64,000 nt of DNA from positions 356 through 64,355 of the IMG/VR virus record IMGVR_UViG_3300040801_001530; one strand, given 5' to 3'. Made by a program: the position numbers and the translations under genes. The notes beneath the pieces were generated by a model, which made no database searches, was not told where the DNA came from, and worked only from the letters and a program-made list of their open reading frames with translations. Of the stretch, positions 3,369-58,466 are shown piece by piece; within the stretch, counting starts at the first letter, position 1, and every line of letters begins with the position of its first letter. The stretch comes from a virus.

Positions 3369-5754
3369 TATAGAGACACGGGCCGTGCTCAAATTTGCCG
3401 TTGACCGTGCGATGCTAAATAAGGCCATCCGGGCAAATAGCGACTTAGAGCAGTCTATTGTTGATATTCGTGAAGCAGCGGATCGCCAAGCACAGGCCGC
3501 ACAAGCTACGCTAGATGTTATGGAGAAGGTAGCGACTATTGGCACTAGTATTTTTAATGCTAGCGCCCAAGCGGCTGAGCAGTATGCACAAAGTGCCGAG
3601 GCCGCTACAGCTACTAGCGAGCGCTGGCTATCAACCAACCAACGCATAGCAGATGCGCAAACGGTATTAGCCGAGAAGCAGGCAAATGCCCTATTACCTT
3701 ATCGTGATGCATTAGCCTCTGTGCTAGAACTTACCTCCGAATTACCAGACGAGGTAATTACCTTTGGTGTTAATGCCGGGGCTGTATTATCCGCTATTGG
3801 GACGGTTGGTACTATCGGTGCACAAATTACGCGCTTTGCATCTGAGGTTCGCATACTGGGCACCTATGTGCAGACATTAGGTCTACAGCAAGGTGCTACA
3901 CGTGCTGCTGTTGGCGTGGGCGCTATAGGTGTTGGCACTGTGGCGGGTATCGGGGCCGTGCAGGCAATTGGGCGTGCTACGGGGGATGAGCGATTAGCAC
4001 AATACGGGTTTGATGATTTATTTGAGACGTTACGCGATAGCCTCGGCGCTATTGGGGCGCTATTTATTAGAGCCGCACGCGACTGGGCTAAGATACTAGT
4101 AGATACAAATAGCATTATGGCACTACTAGCTATCAAAGTTGAGGAGGCAGGCGACTCGTTTGTGCGTGCTATCATGCGTGCATATTATAGCATTCTAGAG
4201 GGTATAGGCAGCCTTAGTGCCGACACCGGCCTAGGCGTAAAGATTGATCTAGGTGACATACTAGGTATTGATGTTGAAGAAGCACGGCAGCGTATTGATG
4301 AATTAACTGAGAGCACTAAGGATTACGGCGCGGCGGCTGAAGAAGTTGGTAAGCGCAATGAAGAATTAAAGGCCCGGATTGATGCTAATACTATGGGTCT
4401 GACCGAAGGGCTTTTAGACCTACTTGGCATCACAGAACGTGAGGCCAGGCGCATTGCGGCGGATTTAGAAGCCGACTTTGAACAAAAATATGATGTTGCG
4501 CGGGCGGTCTACAATTATCTAGAGGCGTCCGATAAGGCTATTATGGCTTTTAATGATAGCCAACTAGAGGCTACCAAAGAACACCACAGCGAACTAGAGA
4601 ACCTAGCCGAAGAATACCATACTAGCCAAGAAGAAGCCTTAGCGGAGCATAATACTAGCCTGCAAGAACTAGCAGCGGAGTACCAACAGGCGCGGCAAGA
4701 TAATGAGGCAGCACATAATAAAAAACTAGCGGGCTTGCGTGATAACTATGAAGATGCTACCACTAAAGCCGCAGCCGAGTTTAATAAGAGCCGCCAAAAG
4801 GTTATAGATGACTATAACGCTGCGGAACTAAAGCGCATAGAGGAGTTTAATCGCGCTAGAGAACGTGCCGACGCAGACCACCGTGATCGCTTACGTGACG
4901 CGGCTGGTCGCCTAGACGCTATAGCCGTGCTCAATGAGCTACGCTCATACAAAAAAGACCAGTCTCGCGCTAAAGAAGACTTTGACAACACTACCAAAGA
5001 GCGGCGCAACGCGCGACAAGAACAGTTAAAAGACTTACAGGCCAGCTACGTAGAGCAAAAACAAGCGCGTGATAATCAATACAAAGAGGCACTGGCAGAC
5101 CAGCGGCAAGCCTACAGTGAGCAACAAGCGGCTACTACACAGGCATATAATGCGCAAGTCGCCACGCAAAAACAAGCATATAATGAGATGAGAACAGCAC
5201 AAGACATCGCCTATCACGAGGAGTTAAATAGCCTCAAAACGCAATTTAACGAACGTCAACAGGCGCAAGAACGCCAATTCAGGCAGGAGCTTGAACTACA
5301 AGATCAGGCGTTCCAAGAACGTCTAAAAGCTATGATGGGCTTTGAGGATGAGACAACCGCATTTTTAAGGCGCAACCTAGATGGGTATAACGATTTTGCA
5401 CAAGCCATTATCGATAATATCATGTTAATAGAGGCAGAACGCTCTAAGCTCGCGCCTGAGATTGTGTACACGCCTAGCACTACACCAAGCCGCGCTAGCG
5501 GCGGTTATTTAAATGCGGGGATGTTTAAGGGGCACCCTAATGAGTATGTGCTTAACCGGCAAACCACAGGCGTTTTAGAGCGCCTAACCGGCGGGATCCT
5601 CACACAACAAAGCGTGCAAAACATCGCTAATAATAGCCGCAGCGTTACGGTGGGCGCATTAAATATTAATGGTGACATCGGCGGCTATACACCGCAACAA
5701 ATCAAGGTGCTAGCGCAACAGGGGCTAGTAGAGTTGTTGGGGGAGATGGGATAA
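3358..5754 (+). CDS. Tape measure protein
   Basis: 798 aa, Ala/Gly-rich hydrophobic middle, long Gln/Glu/Ala coiled coil, canonical position. Confidence 0.8.
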   Translation: MATNIETRAVLKFAVDRAMLNKAIRANSDLEQSIVDIREAADRQAQAAQATLDVMEKVATIGTSIFNASAQAAEQYAQSAEAATATSERWLSTNQRIADAQTVLAEKQANALLPYRDALASVLELTSELPDEVITFGVNAGAVLSAIGTVGTIGAQITRFASEVRILGTYVQTLGLQQGATRAAVGVGAIGVGTVAGIGAVQAIGRATGDERLAQYGFDDLFETLRDSLGAIGALFIRAARDWAKILVDTNSIMALLAIKVEEAGDSFVRAIMRAYYSILEGIGSLSADTGLGVKIDLGDILGIDVEEARQRIDELTESTKDYGAAAEEVGKRNEELKARIDANTMGLTEGLLDLLGITEREARRIAADLEADFEQKYDVARAVYNYLEASDKAIMAFNDSQLEATKEHHSELENLAEEYHTSQEEALAEHNTSLQELAAEYQQARQDNEAAHNKKLAGLRDNYEDATTKAAAEFNKSRQKVIDDYNAAELKRIEEFNRARERADADHRDRLRDAAGRLDAIAVLNELRSYKKDQSRAKEDFDNTTKERRNARQEQLKDLQASYVEQKQARDNQYKEALADQRQAYSEQQAATTQAYNAQVATQKQAYNEMRTAQDIAYHEELNSLKTQFNERQQAQERQFRQELELQDQAFQERLKAMMGFEDETTAFLRRNLDGYNDFAQAIIDNIMLIEAERSKLAPEIVYTPSTTPSRASGGYLNAGMFKGHPNEYVLNRQTTGVLERLTGGILTQQSVQNIANNSRSVTVGALNINGDIGGYTPQQIKVLAQQGLVELLGEMG

Positions 5755-6140: not shown

Positions 6141-9100
6141 GCCTTGATACTACCAAATGGCGTACCCATCCCCAACGTGCAAACGGCTACCTATATATCC
6201 ATAAGCCCGATGTTGTTTGGGAGACTACGATAGACCAAACAACATTTAGTTATCCGATTGTATCTATAGCACATAGTGGCACTATATCCGGCGACCGTTC
6301 TAACGCCGGTGCCGATCAGACTATCAAGGTATCTTCTAGTGGTGGAATATTTAAGGGCTATATTAGGGCACGTTTTGCGCCTAATGCTAGTACGGTCTCA
6401 ATTAATGCCACAAGTCAAGCGGATATAGACTTTGCTAACGGTGATGTGTTAGAGTTTTTAAGCGAGTATCGCTTGTGGACGCGGATCCCACGTATTGAAG
6501 ACGACGGGACTATTAAAAAAGACTACACTATTACTTATCCCGGTTATACTAGCGAACCGCCACCGGTGCCAAATGCGGGCGGCTACTATGCACAATTCGT
6601 GGATGGTAGCGGTAAAATTACAGTAGACTTTGACGCTTCTAGCTCATTCACCATGACTGGTAACAGTATTAGCTATTTTTGGGATTTTGAGGATGGGACG
6701 CCCGGCACATCGAATAGCGCAACGGTTAATGGGGTATCATTCCCTGCGGGGGCGCGGTGGGTACGGTTACAGGTTGAAGATCTAGGTAGTGGGCGGTCTA
6801 TTAATGCACGTACGCTAGTTGTGGGCATAGACAACAGCACAGTTAGCGCGATACCCGCGCAATTATTGAGCCACACACAAACAGTAGCCGATGGCAATAA
6901 TGTGCAGTTTGGCGTTGCCAGCGGGGACATAGGGCGTATCACAGACATACCCGACGGTGCCATCGTAATCTATTTTGAGGATGAGCATTACGGGGAGAAT
7001 AATGAGAGTTTGACGGGTGAGTCTGGCCGAGAACATGTAAAATTTATCGGCTACATAGACGCTGTTAAAACGGGTATACAGGCTAATCAGGCTGAAGATG
7101 TGATATTGGAGTGCATCGGGCCGTTAGGCGCTTTAAAACGTCTGCCAGCGTACCCACAGGTGTTAGAGTATGTAGATACCTCCACTAGCTGGCTAGAGTA
7201 TGATATAGCGCTAAATTGGTGGTTATTCACACATTACCTACTGTATTGGCATAGCACATTTATTAATATATTTGACATAGAGCGTCCTAGCCATTATAAC
7301 CAATACCCTGTCGTGCGCCTTGAGAGTGTTGGTGGCACGCTCTATGACCAGATGCAAGACATAGCTAAGGCGGTTGGTGGCAATGTTACGGCAAACCGCA
7401 ATGGGCGCTTATTGTTCCGCAAGTGGCCTGTTATGCTATCTAGTGCAGACCGTGCTGCTTTAACACCATCTGTACAGCTAACAACTGATGATTGGTTTGG
7501 GCAAATCGCTATTAATGAGCGACATAGTAATAAGACAGGTTGGCTGCGCTCTAGTGCTATTGTGGCAAGCAATACCGCTATAGTACCGGTTCTAGCTATC
7601 GCGCCGGGTGCTGCGCCGGGACAAGGCCGAGATCAACAGACTTTGACACGTCAATTGGTAGCAAGTCAGGCGGAGCTTAACCAGCGTACAGGCGCTTATT
7701 ACGCTTATCTAAACCGCAACATACAAAACCTGCGCGTTAATGTACTGAACAGGGGCAACGTAGCCGATGCGGCAAATCAAGACTTTATACAACTATTTGC
7801 TGACAGTGCAAGCAATCGGCGCGGCTTGCAGTTTGGCTCATCTGATTACTTTGTGGTTACGCAAGTCGATATTAGCCAAGACCCGCTAACGGGTGTTGGT
7901 GCCGAGGTTTGGACATTAGAGCCGATACCCGCTTATGTGGATGGGGTGACCATTGACATACCCAGCGACGGTACAGACTATAATAGCCAACCCCCCCCAT
8001 CATGGGTTCCTATCCCGTTTGAGGATGTCGCAGAACCAGATTTTGTAGACGACGATATACCTACTGGTACCACAGGCATAGCATTAGCCTGGAACAATCC
8101 GCTAGCCTACACGGCAACGCGGGAGGCACCGGGGTGGTCAAGCATTTGGGCACCGGGCACAGGATTCGATGCCGTACGGTCTGTAGTAGGGGATGAATAT
8201 ACTAGTTTTTATCAGACAGGCGCGGGTGCAGCAGGTGCCTATGGCCTAACAGGAACAAATTTATACTATTGCCCAGATGTTACCGCAGGAAGCCCCGCAT
8301 TTACAAATAAACAAGCATTACTGAGTTACAATCTGCTACGCTTACCACGCGGGGTAAACGGTGGCATCATGGCATATGGTGGTGGCACCTCGTTTATTAT
8401 TAGTAATACATTCGATTTAGTGGACGAGTGGTCTTTTAACAGCACGACGGCGGCGGAGACTGATGGTAGTTTTGCCACAGACGCTAATAAGTCGTATCGT
8501 GTAAAGGTGCGAGGTGACTGGCTATATGATAGCCCTAGCCGTGCAGATGGTCAATATAACAGCCTATTAGGCGATTTTACAGACGCATCACGCAGTAATA
8601 ACATTAGCATTAATTCAACAGCCAATGCGGCTGATAACACAACCTATAATGCAGCCGAGGAAGAATTTATATACTACATTAAAAATTCTGCGGGCAACTG
8701 GACAGAAGTTAATATACTGCAAGGCGTAGACAGTGGTGATTATTACGTAAAGAGTGACAAAACACAAGCCACTATTGAGATTATCATTTTTTTAATGAAG
8801 GAGAGCACGGTCAGGGAAGTTGCGTTTGATTATTGGTTTGATAACCCGGCGAGCCTACTATGTGCCACTGGTATTAACTACCAAATCAATAACCAGACCG
8901 TAGCTGGAGCCAATATATCACGATGGGCGAACGAGGATATTAATATATGCTCCCTCGATGAGAATGAGTGGTATAGTGTTACAGAAGCAGACACAGGGCC
9001 TGATACTAATGTTGGCCGTGTGCGCTTATATATTGCTCTTAAAGCACCTACCACATCTAGTGGGGCTATACGGCTTAAAAATATCAGTATAACAACCGAT

Positions 9101-17447: not shown

Positions 17448-17551
17448 TGTTGGCTATCTCCTTTTTTAACAGACGTTAGATGCATCGTAGCATAACGCTA
17501 AGTTGGTGTCAATTAGAATTTATAAAATTCATAAAGCGTTCTAGCCATGTT

Positions 17552-22630: not shown

Positions 22631-22804
22631 TGCCTAATGCTAGCGCGTTGGGGGAGGGCGGGGAATAAAAAAGCCCCAGGCTAGTCAGACCTAGGGCGGG
22701 GCACAGCAGCGGCAACCTTTAGGCGTTGCAACCATTCTACACACCACTCATGCAACAGGAGATGAGTACATCATACCATGCTTGTTATTCGCTGTCAACA
22801 CCTG

Positions 22805-39275: not shown

Positions 39276-39363
39276 GTCTTACTATCATCGCGCTCTAAAT
39301 ACAGCGCACACATTTTATCAATTGCCCCTTACACGCTGGTAAGCATGGGGGCTAAAATGTATG

Positions 39364-39436
39364 TTGGCCTGACTGGACTCGAACCAGCAACCTACACTTT
39401 ATGAGAGTGCTGCGCTAACCATTGCGCCACAGGCCA
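39364..39436 (-). tRNA. tRNA with CAT anticodon (Ile2-lysidine or Met)
   Basis: Full cloverleaf: TGGCCTG/CAGGCCA acceptor, GCACT-CTCATAA-AGTGT arm, TTCGAGT T-loop; C4-G69 and C5-G68 favour Ile2. Confidence 0.88.
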
Positions 39437-39437
39437 G

Positions 39438-39519
39438 TTGCCCCGATAGGAGTCGAACCTACACGGCTAATGCCAGCCGCTTCTAAAACGGCTGCGTCTA
39501 CCAGTTCCGCCACGGGGCA
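39438..39519 (-). tRNA. tRNA-Leu(TAG)
   Basis: Class II cloverleaf, GCCGT-TTTAGAA-GCGGC arm, long variable arm, TTCGACT T-loop, A73. Confidence 0.92.
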
Positions 39520-39561
39520 ATGAGGCGATAACTAAGTTTGTCCGCTTTAGTCTATCGCCAG

Positions 39562-39645
39562 TAGGCTTAGTGGGAGTCGAACCCACACGGGAATTACCCC
39601 AACGGTTTTTAAGACCGTCGTGTCTACCAATTCCACCATAAGCCC
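39562..39645 (-). tRNA. tRNA-Leu(TAA)
   Basis: Class II cloverleaf, ACGGT-CTTAAAA-ACCGT arm, TTCGACT T-loop, A73. Confidence 0.92.
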
Positions 39646-39650
39646 ATAAG

Positions 39651-39720
39651 TAGGGCGTGCCGGTTGCGATTCGGCATCTCCCGCGCCAACGCGGGTGCTT
39701 TTACATTAAGCTAACGCCCT
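39651..39720 (-). tRNA. Degenerate tRNA-like gene (TGG/Pro-like, 16-nt anticodon arm, non-canonical T-loop)
   Basis: Perfect 7-bp acceptor AGGGCGT/ACGCCCT, D-arm GCTT/AAGC, arm CCCGCGTTGGCGCGGG, T-loop ATCGCAA. Confidence 0.55.
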
Positions 39721-39852
39721 CGCCGGTATTTTATAGCGCCCCGCTGCGTCGGCGCTTATTAATAACACCCCGTCGGGTTTTACCGTCGTCACGGCAAAGG
39801 GTTGTGTTTGTGTATCTATAAAAGGGCAAACAACCTCTATCTGAAGCCCCTT

Positions 39853-39921
39853 AAAGCATTGTCGGGATTGAACCGACCACCTCCGCATAGAGCGGCGTAA
39901 TCACCAGATTACTTAATGCCT
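39853..39921 (-). tRNA. Aberrant tRNA-like gene with shortened anticodon arm centred on CTA
   Basis: Acceptor AGGCATT/AATGCTT, D-arm GTAA/TTAC with GG, T-arm GTCGG-TTCAATC-CCGAC, arm CCGC-TCTAT-GCGG. Confidence 0.6.
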
Positions 39922-39973
39922 TCGTAAAGCATCGACACGCCCCATATGTGAGGCTATGTTTATATACAAAACA

Positions 39974-40002
39974 ACTATATCACATCCCGGCGGACTTGTC
40001 AA
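39974..40002 (-). promoter_or_regulatory. Sigma70 promoter for the tRNA cluster, overlapping the last codons of iscB
   Basis: TTGACA-17 nt-TATAGT on the minus strand. Confidence 0.7.
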
Positions 40003-41335
40003 GGGCTGTGTCATGTTTAACAACGATATGCCCTATAGAGCGCTGTAGAACGGTGCAAGCGCTAGGGGATGCGCTGTGTCGTTGCCCGCGTCTATCTGTG
40101 ATGCTAAACCCGCCCTTAGCACGCCAACTGGTAACAAACCCCGTGAATGTGGTACCATCGCGCTTAATCACCCTGACAAAATCACGTGCTCTAATTCCAT
40201 CTCTCGTTTTTGCGCGGGCCTTCGGCTTTGCGCGGGGGAACCCGAATTTATCCGGTTTGCACGCTTGCCTGCTGCCACGGGCTTTGGCAATAATCAACTT
40301 AGGCACGATAGAGCGCGGTATAATAATCTTTGAGCCTATCGCCCCCACGCAGGCCGCGTCTATCCAATGGTCTTTAGGATACCCGGCTAAGGTACGATTA
40401 TATTTAGTAAGCGCCCCCGTGCCCAACTCTACGATTAGCCCCGATGCCTCTAGCCGTTCCCGTAACACAATGCGTGTAGCATTTACAGCCGCCATATCCC
40501 GCATAGATAGCCCCCGCTGTGCTTTTGCTTGCAGCGCGGGGTGTCCAAACTCGTCTGCGGTATTATTACCCTTGCGCTGGTTGCATGGCCCGCAGGCTAT
40601 TGCTAGATTATCAATCCGATTAGAGCCACCGCGCGATTTAGGGACAATATGCTCAATCTGTAGGGGTACGTTTGCGGCACCGCAATAGGCGCACTTCCTA
40701 CCCCACTTCTCTAACAGATATTCCCTAACCTCGTACCCCGCTAGTGTGCCCTGCTGGTATTCCACACCACTAATTGCAGGGTTGGCCATTAGTTGAGTAT
40801 CAAACTTAACATCCTCTAGCGCGTTGTGCTCATAGCCTGTATAACGCCATACACGCTCCGCCCAAACCATAGTATTATCCAAGCGGCTACGCATAGAGGG
40901 CGCAAGCCAACCCTTCGGCACCATGCGACGGTAGGTGATTTTACCTGCCCGCTTATTTGCGCCTAGCACCTCACCAGCACGGGGCCGCCACGGGCGATAG
41001 CGCAGGTTAGCTGTACGGCGGCGGCGACGGTATCCGCTACGATCTTTTAAATGCTTGACCACTACACTAGCCCGGTGTTCGAGATTTGCGCCCCATACGA
41101 CAGTAGGCCCGCGCTTAAAATCAGCTACCAACGCTATACCCGTTGTTTTGCTGCCGGGATCTATTTTGTATTGCATGGCTTGCTTATGGCCGCCTTCGTG
41201 GTCTTTTAATATGATGGTAAATGGCGTGTGGCGATAAACCGCCGCCTTACCATCACGCAACAGCTTACGCGCCCGTGCCGGTTGACATGGCATTAAGGGC
41301 TGCTTATGTTTGTCTAGTACAAAAACACGGCTCAT
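39980..41335 (-). CDS. iscB: IscB RNA-guided endonuclease (PLMP, split RuvC, bridge helix, HNH)
   Basis: VFVLDKHKQPLMPC (PLMP); IDPGSKTTG (RuvC-I); RRRRRTANLRYR bridge helix; LEDVKFDTQ (RuvC-II); EHIVPKSRGGSNRIDNLAIACGPCNQRKG (HNH); HWIDAACV (RuvC-III). Confidence 0.97.
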   Translation of the reverse strand: MSRVFVLDKHKQPLMPCQPARARKLLRDGKAAVYRHTPFTIILKDHEGGHKQAMQYKIDPGSKTTGIALVADFKRGPTVVWGANLEHRASVVVKHLKDRSGYRRRRRTANLRYRPWRPRAGEVLGANKRAGKITYRRMVPKGWLAPSMRSRLDNTMVWAERVWRYTGYEHNALEDVKFDTQLMANPAISGVEYQQGTLAGYEVREYLLEKWGRKCAYCGAANVPLQIEHIVPKSRGGSNRIDNLAIACGPCNQRKGNNTADEFGHPALQAKAQRGLSMRDMAAVNATRIVLRERLEASGLIVELGTGALTKYNRTLAGYPKDHWIDAACVGAIGSKIIIPRSIVPKLIIAKARGSRQACKPDKFGFPRAKPKARAKTRDGIRARDFVRVIKRDGTTFTGFVTSWRAKGGFSITDRRGQRHSASPSACTVLQRSIGHIVVKHDTALDKSAGM

Positions 41336-41369: not shown

Positions 41370-41695
41370 AAAATGCCGTAGAGTTGCGTAACCCCACGGC
41401 ATTTTGTGCCACTGTAAAATGGCCACTCCTAGCCGCTTACGCGGCATCGGGTAAAGGTCTCCTTGGCAATGTTATGCACGGTTTATCGCTAACAGCACTT
41501 CGCTAAGCGGGTTACGATGTTTAACTGTTGAGCCGTATTTTACCCAGACTGGAGAAGCATCCGGGGATACCTATATATTCGCACATAACGTAGGCTATTT
41601 AGCGTTTATGGCGCTATTCGCCTTAGCCGGGATGCAGTGGTATTGTAAACGTTTTGGGGTTACAATACCCCCACGGCGTGGGGCCGCTCTGCAAC
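41370..41695 (-). ncRNA. Omega RNA (HEARO-type) scaffold fused to the terminal CRISPR repeat
   Basis: Minus strand CTACGTTATGTGCGAATATATAGGTATCCCCGGATGCTTCTCCAGTCTGGG...TAAACA...CATAACATTGCCAAGGAGACCTTTACCCG matches the recalled IscB omega RNA core; 3' hairpin 41371-41404; ends approximate. Confidence 0.85.
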
Positions 41696-41829
41696 AAACG
41701 CGATACCATAAATGAGTTACAATACCCCCACGGCGTGGGGCCGCTCTGCAACTTTAGCAAATCGAGCTTTGCCCTTATCGTTTGAGGATTACAATACCCC
41801 CCCCACACGGCGTAGGGCCACGCTAGAAC
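41659..41829 (-). CRISPR. Mini CRISPR array: two identical 37-nt repeats, one degenerate repeat, two spacers (20 and 35 nt)
   Basis: Repeat GTTGCAGAGCGGCCCCACGCCGTGGGGGTATTGTAAC at 41659-41695 and 41716-41752; degenerate copy 41788-41829; spacers 41696-41715 and 41753-41787. Confidence 0.88.
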
Positions 41830-41835
41830 ACACTA

Positions 41836-41864
41836 AGTGTATCATGCATCACGTCTCTTGTCAA
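41836..41864 (-). promoter_or_regulatory. Sigma70 promoter driving array-omegaRNA-iscB
   Basis: TTGACA-17 nt-TACACT; predicted start ~41829-41830, at the first repeat; overlaps a divergent TTGTCA-17-TAAACT (41858-41886). Confidence 0.8.
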
Positions 41865-41920
41865 GGGTTAGATTATATGGTAAACTTTTAGCATATCTAA
41901 AGGATAAGGAAGCGAACAAG

Positions 41921-58094: not shown

Positions 58095-58466
58095 TTAATC
58101 TACACCGTGGATAATACTACTACTAAAGCCACCGTCTTTGTCTATCATATCATAGCCGATTGAGCCATCAGGCTGCGCGGTTACATCCAACGTGCGCAAA
58201 TCGCCACACCAATGCCCCACCTCGGCAAGATGCAACAACGCGCTAGATGCACTATCAAAGTTATAGAGTGTGACGCGGCACAAACTCACGGTATCAGTAA
58301 CGACCCACGGCTTTAGACCGTCTTCGATTAAATCGTGCTCATAGTAAATATGCATAGAGTTCTCCAAACGTTGCCGGTATGCAAAAGAGTAACGCGGGGG
58401 CCTCCCGGTATTATCCCCCACGCTAAAAGATGCGTCTAATATATCATGGCATATCATGTGTGTCAA
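58095..58466 (-). CDS. Hypothetical protein
   Basis: 123 aa ORF. Confidence 0.45.
   Translation of the reverse strand: MTHMICHDILDASFSVGDNTGRPPRYSFAYRQRLENSMHIYYEHDLIEDGLKPWVVTDTVSLCRVTLYNFDSASSALLHLAEVGHWCGDLRTLDVTAQPDGSIGYDMIDKDGGFSSSIIHGVD

Follow-up and report, generated by a model that had tools for sequence, protein, structure and literature searches.

How does a phage with no recognizable adaptation genes come to carry a CRISPR-like array whose degenerate repeat lies next to the promoter, and whose perfect repeats lie beside the omega RNA of an IscB nuclease? The first-pass annotation of this DNA had read the arrangement as a reversed array polarity, with a host-type repeat, growth at the omega end and, possibly, the use of borrowed host Cas1-Cas2. 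The window analyzed here is a 64,000-nt stretch that makes up nearly all of the 64,579-bp IMG/VR phage record IMGVR_UViG_3300040801_001530 (82% complete by CheckV). The phage record encodes portal and MuF domains and has long ORFs under the standard code, and the GC content of the block formed by the array, the omega RNA and iscB is no different from that of the remainder of the phage. We did not find sibling phages through an IscB search of viral contigs (best match 47-48% identity), through the ASCH-domain gene beside the array, or through a 481-aa ORF that we take, by its position only, to be a putative large terminase subunit; a search of INPHARED returned tRNA matches only.

Layout of the array and its promoter

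On the minus strand, a compact block of ~1.9 kb runs from a promoter-like site through a degenerate repeat (R3), a 35-nt spacer, a perfect repeat (R2), a 20-nt spacer, a second perfect repeat (R1) and the omega RNA to iscB (Table 1). The array is real: it consists of two identical 37-nt repeats and a degenerate third, and the number of 37-nt matches such as that between R1 and R2 expected from shuffles of the window was 0.00. Both spacer sequences were reproduced exactly as annotated, and the coordinates agree that the degenerate repeat is promoter-proximal and that the perfect repeats adjoin the omega RNA. The interval originally assigned to the array, 41696-41829, does contain the degenerate copy, R2 and both spacers, but it leaves out R1. 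With repeats of 37, 37 and 42 nt and spacers of 20 and 35 nt, the units are unequal in length (57 and 77 nt). Beyond its first nine nucleotides, the 35-nt spacer has no similarity to the omega RNA, and neither does any part of the 20-nt spacer.

Table 1. Features of the array, omega RNA and iscB block in window coordinates, listed in the direction of the minus strand.
Feature	Position	Strand	Remarks
Promoter-like site	41836..41864	-	TTGACA, 17 nt, TG-n-TACACT (extended -10); consensus only
Degenerate repeat R3, 42 nt	41788..41829	-	5-nt insertion, ~9 substitutions; P3 5' strand GGTATTGTAA intact
35-nt spacer	41753-41787	-	
Putative P3 loop relic, CCTCAAACG	41779..41787	-	First 9 nt of the 35-nt spacer
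Unique 26-nt part of the 35-nt spacer	41753..41778	-	Possible second guide; small hairpin GCAAA..TTTGC inside
Perfect repeat R2, 37 nt	41716..41752	-	Identical to R1
20-nt spacer	41696..41715	-	At the ordinary IscB guide position, directly 5' of the scaffold
Perfect repeat R1, 37 nt	41659..41695	-	First 37 nt of the predicted omega RNA: P1 5' strand, P2 hairpin, P3 5' strand
P3 loop, CCCAAAACG	41650-41658	-	9 nt, after R1
Anti-repeat, TTTACAATACC	41639-41649	-	Inverted repeat and folds
P1 3' strand, ACTGCATCCCGGC	41626-41638	-	Inverted repeat and folds
HEARO (RF02033) match	41451..41689	-	Full model, 1-211
Terminator-like hairpin	41370..41405	-	~18 bp, ends in a U run; between the omega RNA and the iscB RBS
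iscB, 451 aa	39980..41335	-	PLMP/RRXRR N-terminus, RuvC, HNH
Second promoter-like site	39974..40002	-	Same type; overlaps the last iscB codons, faces the tRNA cluster
Five sites of the promoter pattern	17484-17512, 22770-22798, 39974-40002, 41836-41864, 58438-58466	-	

Transcription from the promoter-like site at the head of the block would be expected to start ~7 nt past it, at or near 41829. This is the first base of R3, as the original annotation had it, and the prediction is made from consensus only. We found that the pattern TTGACA-N14-TG-N-TA-NNN-T occurs five times in the window, every time on the minus strand, against 0.02 occurrences expected, which makes the start-site prediction reasonable, if unproven. 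The five sites are probably a set of host-sigma70 promoters for minus-strand units of the phage.

Two of these promoters bracket the block (41828-41867 and 39966-40005, both on the minus strand); both have CCCTTGACAAG and further bases in common, and the score of their alignment was reached by 2 of 500 shuffles. We considered a target duplication as the source of this similarity and set it aside, since a shared promoter consensus may suffice. The whole block may have been inserted at the start site of a promoter. Alignments to homologues of IscB end at residue 436 of 451, and the last 15 iscB codons, which overlap the second promoter-like site, may be flanking sequence that is read through.

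The IscB locus and the identity of the repeat

Judged from its sequence, iscB is intact and encodes a typical IscB. Its product matches the Pfam families RRXRR (7.2e-55) and HNH (3.4e-12) as well as solved IscB structures (1e-22 to 4e-38), and the RuvC D, the HNH H and the RuvC III H..D are all present in the alignment to those structures. The nearest proteins among 5.8 billion are only 54-56% identical; those that carry a name are mostly from Chloroflexota, and these nearest named homologues, the one pointer to a host, suggest Chloroflexota.

Just upstream of iscB, the Rfam HEARO model is matched with 65.1 bits (E 3.4e-12), a score below the Rfam gathering score of 83, and model position 1 falls within R1. 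Read in order, the repeat consists of GTTGCAGAGCGG, CCCCAC-GCC-GTGGGG and GTATTGTAAC, and the partner strands TTTACAATACC and ACTGCATCCCGGC follow after the 9-nt loop. We aligned the 5' ends of 13 array-less relatives and found the same elements, once each: GTCAAC (P1), a CCCC..GGGG hairpin (P2) and CTTGTAA (P3), with the loop, the P3 3' strand and GTTGAC, the P1 3' strand, downstream. Because the order of elements matches that in the HEARO relatives, the GTTGCA and TTGTAAC ends of the repeat are, on comparative grounds, strands of P1 and P3 and not a class 1 handle. By the same alignment, the 37-nt repeat is the 5' end of the phage's own omega RNA, from the guide/scaffold junction to the apex of P3. 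The first-pass annotation's host-type repeat finds no support in this comparison, the P1/P2/P3 order being that of the 13 relatives.

Folding predictions are consistent with this assignment. The local fold contains P2 and an 11-bp P3 in which R1 pairs with the anti-repeat, and forcing either perfect repeat to pair with the anti-repeat gave predicted energies of -123.6 kcal/mol for R1 and -121.6 kcal/mol for R2, within 2 kcal/mol of each other. If the terminator-like hairpin downstream of the scaffold does terminate transcription, iscB would need read-through or a promoter of its own.

We fetched relatives of the IscB at 7 viral and 31 genomic loci, with 38-55% identity. In 6 of the 7 viral loci scanned, a HEARO match lies just upstream of iscB, the exception (at E 0.001) being L007; a single HEARO precedes iscB at each of the 14 genomic loci that we scanned, and scores across the relatives are 46-168 bits. 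Direct repeats of at least 12 nt, at a spacing of 30-160 nt and within 900 nt upstream of iscB, were present in 0 of 32 relatives; as a control, the same script detected the window's own repeats. On this comparison the array is private to this phage lineage, which agrees with the statement in PMC10691335 that arrays joined IscB on several independent occasions.

Two of these viral loci, the related phage contigs L004 and L005, each have two HEARO matches ~3.3 kb apart (3742-3957 and 7080-7295), the second copy being downstream of iscB, with a group I intron match upstream of these (229-618).

Origin of the repeat copies

R3 aligns with R1 through its 5-nt insertion and then continues for 9 nt beyond the repeat, where CCTCAAACG and the P3 loop CCCAAAACG are identical at 7 of 9 positions. 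By a binomial estimate, the chance of at least 7 identical positions in 9 is ~0.0013, and the 9 nt after R2, at the start of the 20-nt spacer, agree with the P3 loop at only 3 of 9. This match suggests that R3 was copied from the scaffold, although the putative relic spans no more than 9 nt. The foreign part of the '35-nt spacer' would then be only 26 nt.

We consider it probable that the locus is a phage CRISPR-associated IscB with a mini-array made from its own omega RNA by segmental duplication. R1 would be the working 5' end of the omega RNA, with the 20 nt before it as the guide slot, and duplication of a segment, with both break sites at the P3 apex, would have given rise to the upstream units. 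For R3, copied from a scaffold-attached copy, the breakpoint would lie at the border of the P3 loop and 3' strand; for R2, it would lie at the border of the 5' strand and the loop. R3 would be the oldest copy, and R2 a recent or selected one. At the predicted 5' end of the transcript there is no room for a guide before R3, which would explain its decay, and R1 would be kept intact by its role in the scaffold. A single transcript would start at the promoter, take in all three repeats and the scaffold, and extend as far as the hairpin ahead of iscB, and IscB would bind the scaffold (the helices formed by R1 and the anti-repeat) with the 16-20 nt before R1 as its guide.

Segmental duplication would also account for the polarity of the array. 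If the scaffold copy is the template for new copies, and intact copies persist only next to the scaffold, then copying of the scaffold's own start would leave old copies far from the omega RNA and new ones near it, without a leader at the omega end. The growth at the omega end proposed in the first-pass annotation is compatible with the age order of the copies, but leader-like adaptation at that end finds no support, since copying from the scaffold suffices; the 'wrong' polarity requires no exotic adaptation mechanism. We infer from these observations the duplication mechanism itself, a guide function of the 20-nt spacer, and a possible second guide, available if R2 in place of R1 pairs with the anti-repeat. 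Since a simple duplication would carry the guide along with the repeat, it does not account for the different spacers between the copies, and the origin of these unrelated spacers is explained by none of the models that we tested.

Arrays have been proposed to arise by serial duplication of omega RNA segments (PMC10691335). Accounts of how CRISPR arrays originated beside the transposon nucleases IscB and TnpB rest largely on phylogeny, with omega RNA duplication as the favored but undocumented route (PMC10691335). The present locus lends that route sequence-level support through three observations: the positional homology of the repeat, the breakpoints at one apex, and the loop relic.

We find it unlikely, if by no means far-fetched, that the copies are instead scars stacked up at one site, in which case they would be element ends left by repeated insertion, excision or repair of the IS200/IS605 type, the 'array' would be functionless, and the ordinary, flank-derived 20-nt guide alone would work. 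In mobile IscB elements the transposon ends at the guide/scaffold junction, with which the 5' edge of the repeat does coincide, but both breakpoints lie at the P3 apex and not at the element end. The distal copy is decaying, as expected of a scar, yet R2 is identical to R1 at 37 of 37 positions while R3 has decayed, so that R2 would have to be very recent or selected; judging by a bridging contig from the RNA runs, R2 is also co-transcribed with the guide. The position of the block, at the predicted start of a phage promoter and with a similar promoter at its other end, would suit an insertion. Against a mobile element stands the gene content: in six frames of the record we found no Y1 transposase TnpA (PF01797), and no second copy of the repeat or omega RNA was found elsewhere in the record. 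The locus lacks both of the features of a mobile IS200/IS605 copy that we tested, a Y1 transposase and further copies.

It is very improbable that the array is adaptive, with host Cas1-Cas2 recognizing a host-like repeat and integrating spacers at the omega-proximal end. Such growth would produce a degenerate copy distal to the omega RNA and two identical copies proximal to it, as observed, in a phage without adaptation genes of its own; as the first-pass annotation had noted, cas1 and cas2 are absent, and our six-frame HMM search of the 64,579-bp record found neither Cas1 (PF01867) nor Cas2 (PF09827), while control genomes matched. Phage CRISPR systems that lack Cas1 and Cas2 have been described, as have virus-borne mini-arrays that rely on host machinery, and these precedents favor a borrowed integrase. 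The repeat itself argues otherwise, being homologous to the HEARO 5' end and pairing with the 3' strands of the phage's own omega RNA. Nor would a Cas1-Cas2 ruler give units of 57 and 77 nt or a repeat that bears indels, and the unequal spacers (20 and 35 nt), the loop relic (7/9) and the indels in the degenerate copy all speak against borrowed host Cas1-Cas2. We also found no exact match to the 25-nt repeat core in one genome each of 185,579 species, no exact match to the 37-nt repeat in viral contigs, and no array variants in the DNA-run contigs, which come from one sample at low depth. Of the features of a Cas1-Cas2-maintained array that we tested, the locus lacks the genes, the uniform lengths and a degenerate repeat at the end away from the leader. 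Serial duplication of an omega RNA segment fits the sequence better than growth by Cas1-Cas2.

Least probable of all is that IscB was inserted beside a captured host CRISPR array and that its omega RNA later evolved an anti-repeat: the repeat ends resemble those of common class 1 repeats, but the repeat holds the conserved HEARO P2 hairpin and P3 strand in conserved order and position, the last repeat is part of the scaffold and not adjacent to it, and there are two and a half units only and no other cas gene. Capture is a route left open for systems of the Cas12/TnpA type (PMC10691335).

Within the segmental duplication that we prefer, a further step can be modeled, which we hold to be rather doubtful: a single unprocessed transcript could serve as a two-guide RNA, with the one anti-repeat pairing with either R1 or R2. 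Pairing with R1 would present the 20-nt spacer; in the R2-paired form the guide would be the 3' end of the 35-nt spacer, and R1 together with the 20-nt spacer would form a loop at a dispensable P3 apex. In DelIscB, repeats and anti-repeat lie in one ncRNA, the system stays functional when the DR/anti-repeat hairpin is truncated, and guides of 16-18 nt work (PMC12660989); the tolerance of truncation makes such a looped-out form conceivable. If this reading were true, IscB would multiplex guides without a trans tracrRNA, RNase III processing or Cas1-Cas2. The locus would then represent a living intermediate between omega RNA and crRNA:tracrRNA, used by the phage as a weapon.

Known systems, spacer targets and RNA cover

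The CRISPR-associated IscB described by Altae-Tran et al. in 2021 reportedly has no adaptation genes. Like this group, the present locus encodes a small IscB (451 aa, against 457 aa for DelIscB) and has a single ncRNA upstream in the same orientation, which contains the repeats, spacers and anti-repeat, with a repeat/anti-repeat hairpin formed in cis. It differs in being phage-borne, in having two perfect repeats and one decayed repeat, and in its loop relic and unequal spacers; the comparison with DelIscB was made by published description. As far as sequence can tell, the locus has the features of a CRISPR-associated IscB that we tested (the protein, an upstream omega scaffold, and repeats with an anti-repeat). 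The closest known kind is CRISPR-associated IscB (DelIscB), a type of system that is rare but already described (Altae-Tran et al. 2021, summarized in PMC10691335 and PMC11610941). What is new here is modest: a distinct phage lineage, the loop relic, and RNA-library evidence from a natural community.

Other systems are less similar. Type II CRISPR-Cas likewise has the spacer 5' of the repeat, a repeat that pairs with an anti-repeat, and array and scaffold upstream of the nuclease; in subtype II-D, the array lies upstream of the gene for Cas9d (PMC10691335). Here, unlike in type II, there is no separate tracrRNA gene, the anti-repeat being fused in cis to the last repeat, and there is no Cas1/Cas2, no REC lobe and no uniform spacer length. 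Ordinary IscB-omega RNA systems (OMEGA; OgeuIscB, PDB 7XHT/7UTN) have the same protein domains, an upstream HEARO-type scaffold and a guide 5' of that scaffold. In ordinary OMEGA elements of the IS200/IS605 type, however, there is one guide derived from the flank and no repeat, whereas here there are three copies of the scaffold's first 37 nt, and TnpA and a second copy are missing. Viral mini-arrays and phage CRISPR without adaptation genes have reportedly been described by Medvedeva et al. and Faure et al. in 2019 and by Al-Shayeb et al. in 2020. Virus-borne mini-arrays have host-type repeats, depend on host effectors and carry spacers that match rival viruses. They resemble the present locus as very short arrays in viruses without Cas1/Cas2; here, in contrast, the repeat is part of the guide RNA of the phage's own IscB, and our searches found no target above chance.

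We searched for targets of the spacers in the window and in viral and metagenome contigs. With up to three mismatches allowed, no second copy of either spacer was found in the window, which bears out the first-pass observation that no full protospacer is present there. For the 20-nt spacer, the 3' 16-mer has 10 exact matches in viral contigs, against 22 for the reversed control; the best of these extends to 19 of 20 nt (in L012), and none reaches 20 nt. The 3' 17-mer of the 35-nt spacer has 13 exact matches in viral contigs, against 4 for the reversed control, and none extends beyond 17 nt. Eight of the 13 share a single location, the conserved motif DASGEARFAKG of a helicase-like gene, which we take from its motifs alone to be T4 gp41/DnaB-like. 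By our own count, the 17-mer matches represent ~5 independent sequences against 4 for the reversed control, and we treated them as chance and not as protospacers.

In the eight divergent viral contigs concerned (L023, L024, L026, L027 and L030-L033), the 17-mer corresponds to the codons for EARFAK. The 3' flank of these matches is GGTAT, GGAAT or GGTGT, and two of the contigs match the spacer at 26 of 35 positions overall. A 16-nt IscB guide would formally match the helicase-like genes of all eight.

The full 20-mer was found in metagenome contigs at one locus, in two strain variants (L065:771-790 and L066:1102-1121; Ga0247779), with identity at 20 of 20 positions; ~1 such match is expected by chance, a rough estimate as the size of the collection is not stated. 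The match lies at the start of a 157-aa ORF and is followed by ACCCCAAAGA; the similarity of its 3' flank ACCCCAAA to the end of R1 and the adjoining loop does not exceed that of shuffles. ORFs of the contig are fragmented under every stop reassignment and a histone-deacetylase domain is split, so that the contig looks eukaryotic, and no other similarity between it and the window was found. We rejected this match as a protospacer and regard it as probably due to chance, with ~1 expected and a eukaryote-like contig unrelated to the phage. Exact-match scans of viral and metagenome contigs gave no protospacers above chance.

The phage comes from a microbial-mat sample, and the single study that holds the sequence comprises two DNA and two metatranscriptome runs, which we examined as Logan contigs. 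This RNA evidence consists of assembled contigs from one sample and carries no information on strand, ends or processing. In both RNA runs, contigs extend from 41376 or 41385 to 41688 and from 41659 to 41745, at a depth of 8-12. The latter contig, 87 nt long, spans the final 30 nt of R2, the 20-nt spacer and R1, which shows that some molecules read through R2. RNA-run contigs are also present in the tRNA region below iscB (39664-39934) and are absent from both the coding sequence of iscB and the ASCH-domain gene beside the array. The DNA runs cover patches of the omega RNA, array, tRNA, iscB and ASCH regions at ~3x; contigs of neither the RNA nor the DNA runs reach the 35-nt spacer or R3. Carry-over of DNA would explain this pattern less well than a stable and abundant omega RNA would. 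The locus appears, from the RNA-run contigs, to be expressed in a natural community. The contig stops at 41688 and 41745 each fall k-1 bases inside one of the identical repeats and are assembly breaks, not RNA ends. Those at 41376 and 41385, inside the terminator-like hairpin, are a weak hint of the 3' end of the omega RNA.

A cluster of tRNA genes lies directly below iscB, at 39363-39922 of the window on the minus strand. ARAGORN calls a tRNA with anticodon CTA (an amber reader) at 39852-39922, which is absent from the Rfam listing, and Rfam at a looser threshold has a tRNA-like match at 39651-39720, which is absent from the ARAGORN calls. Both agree on the tRNAs for Met, Leu-TAG and Leu-TAA.
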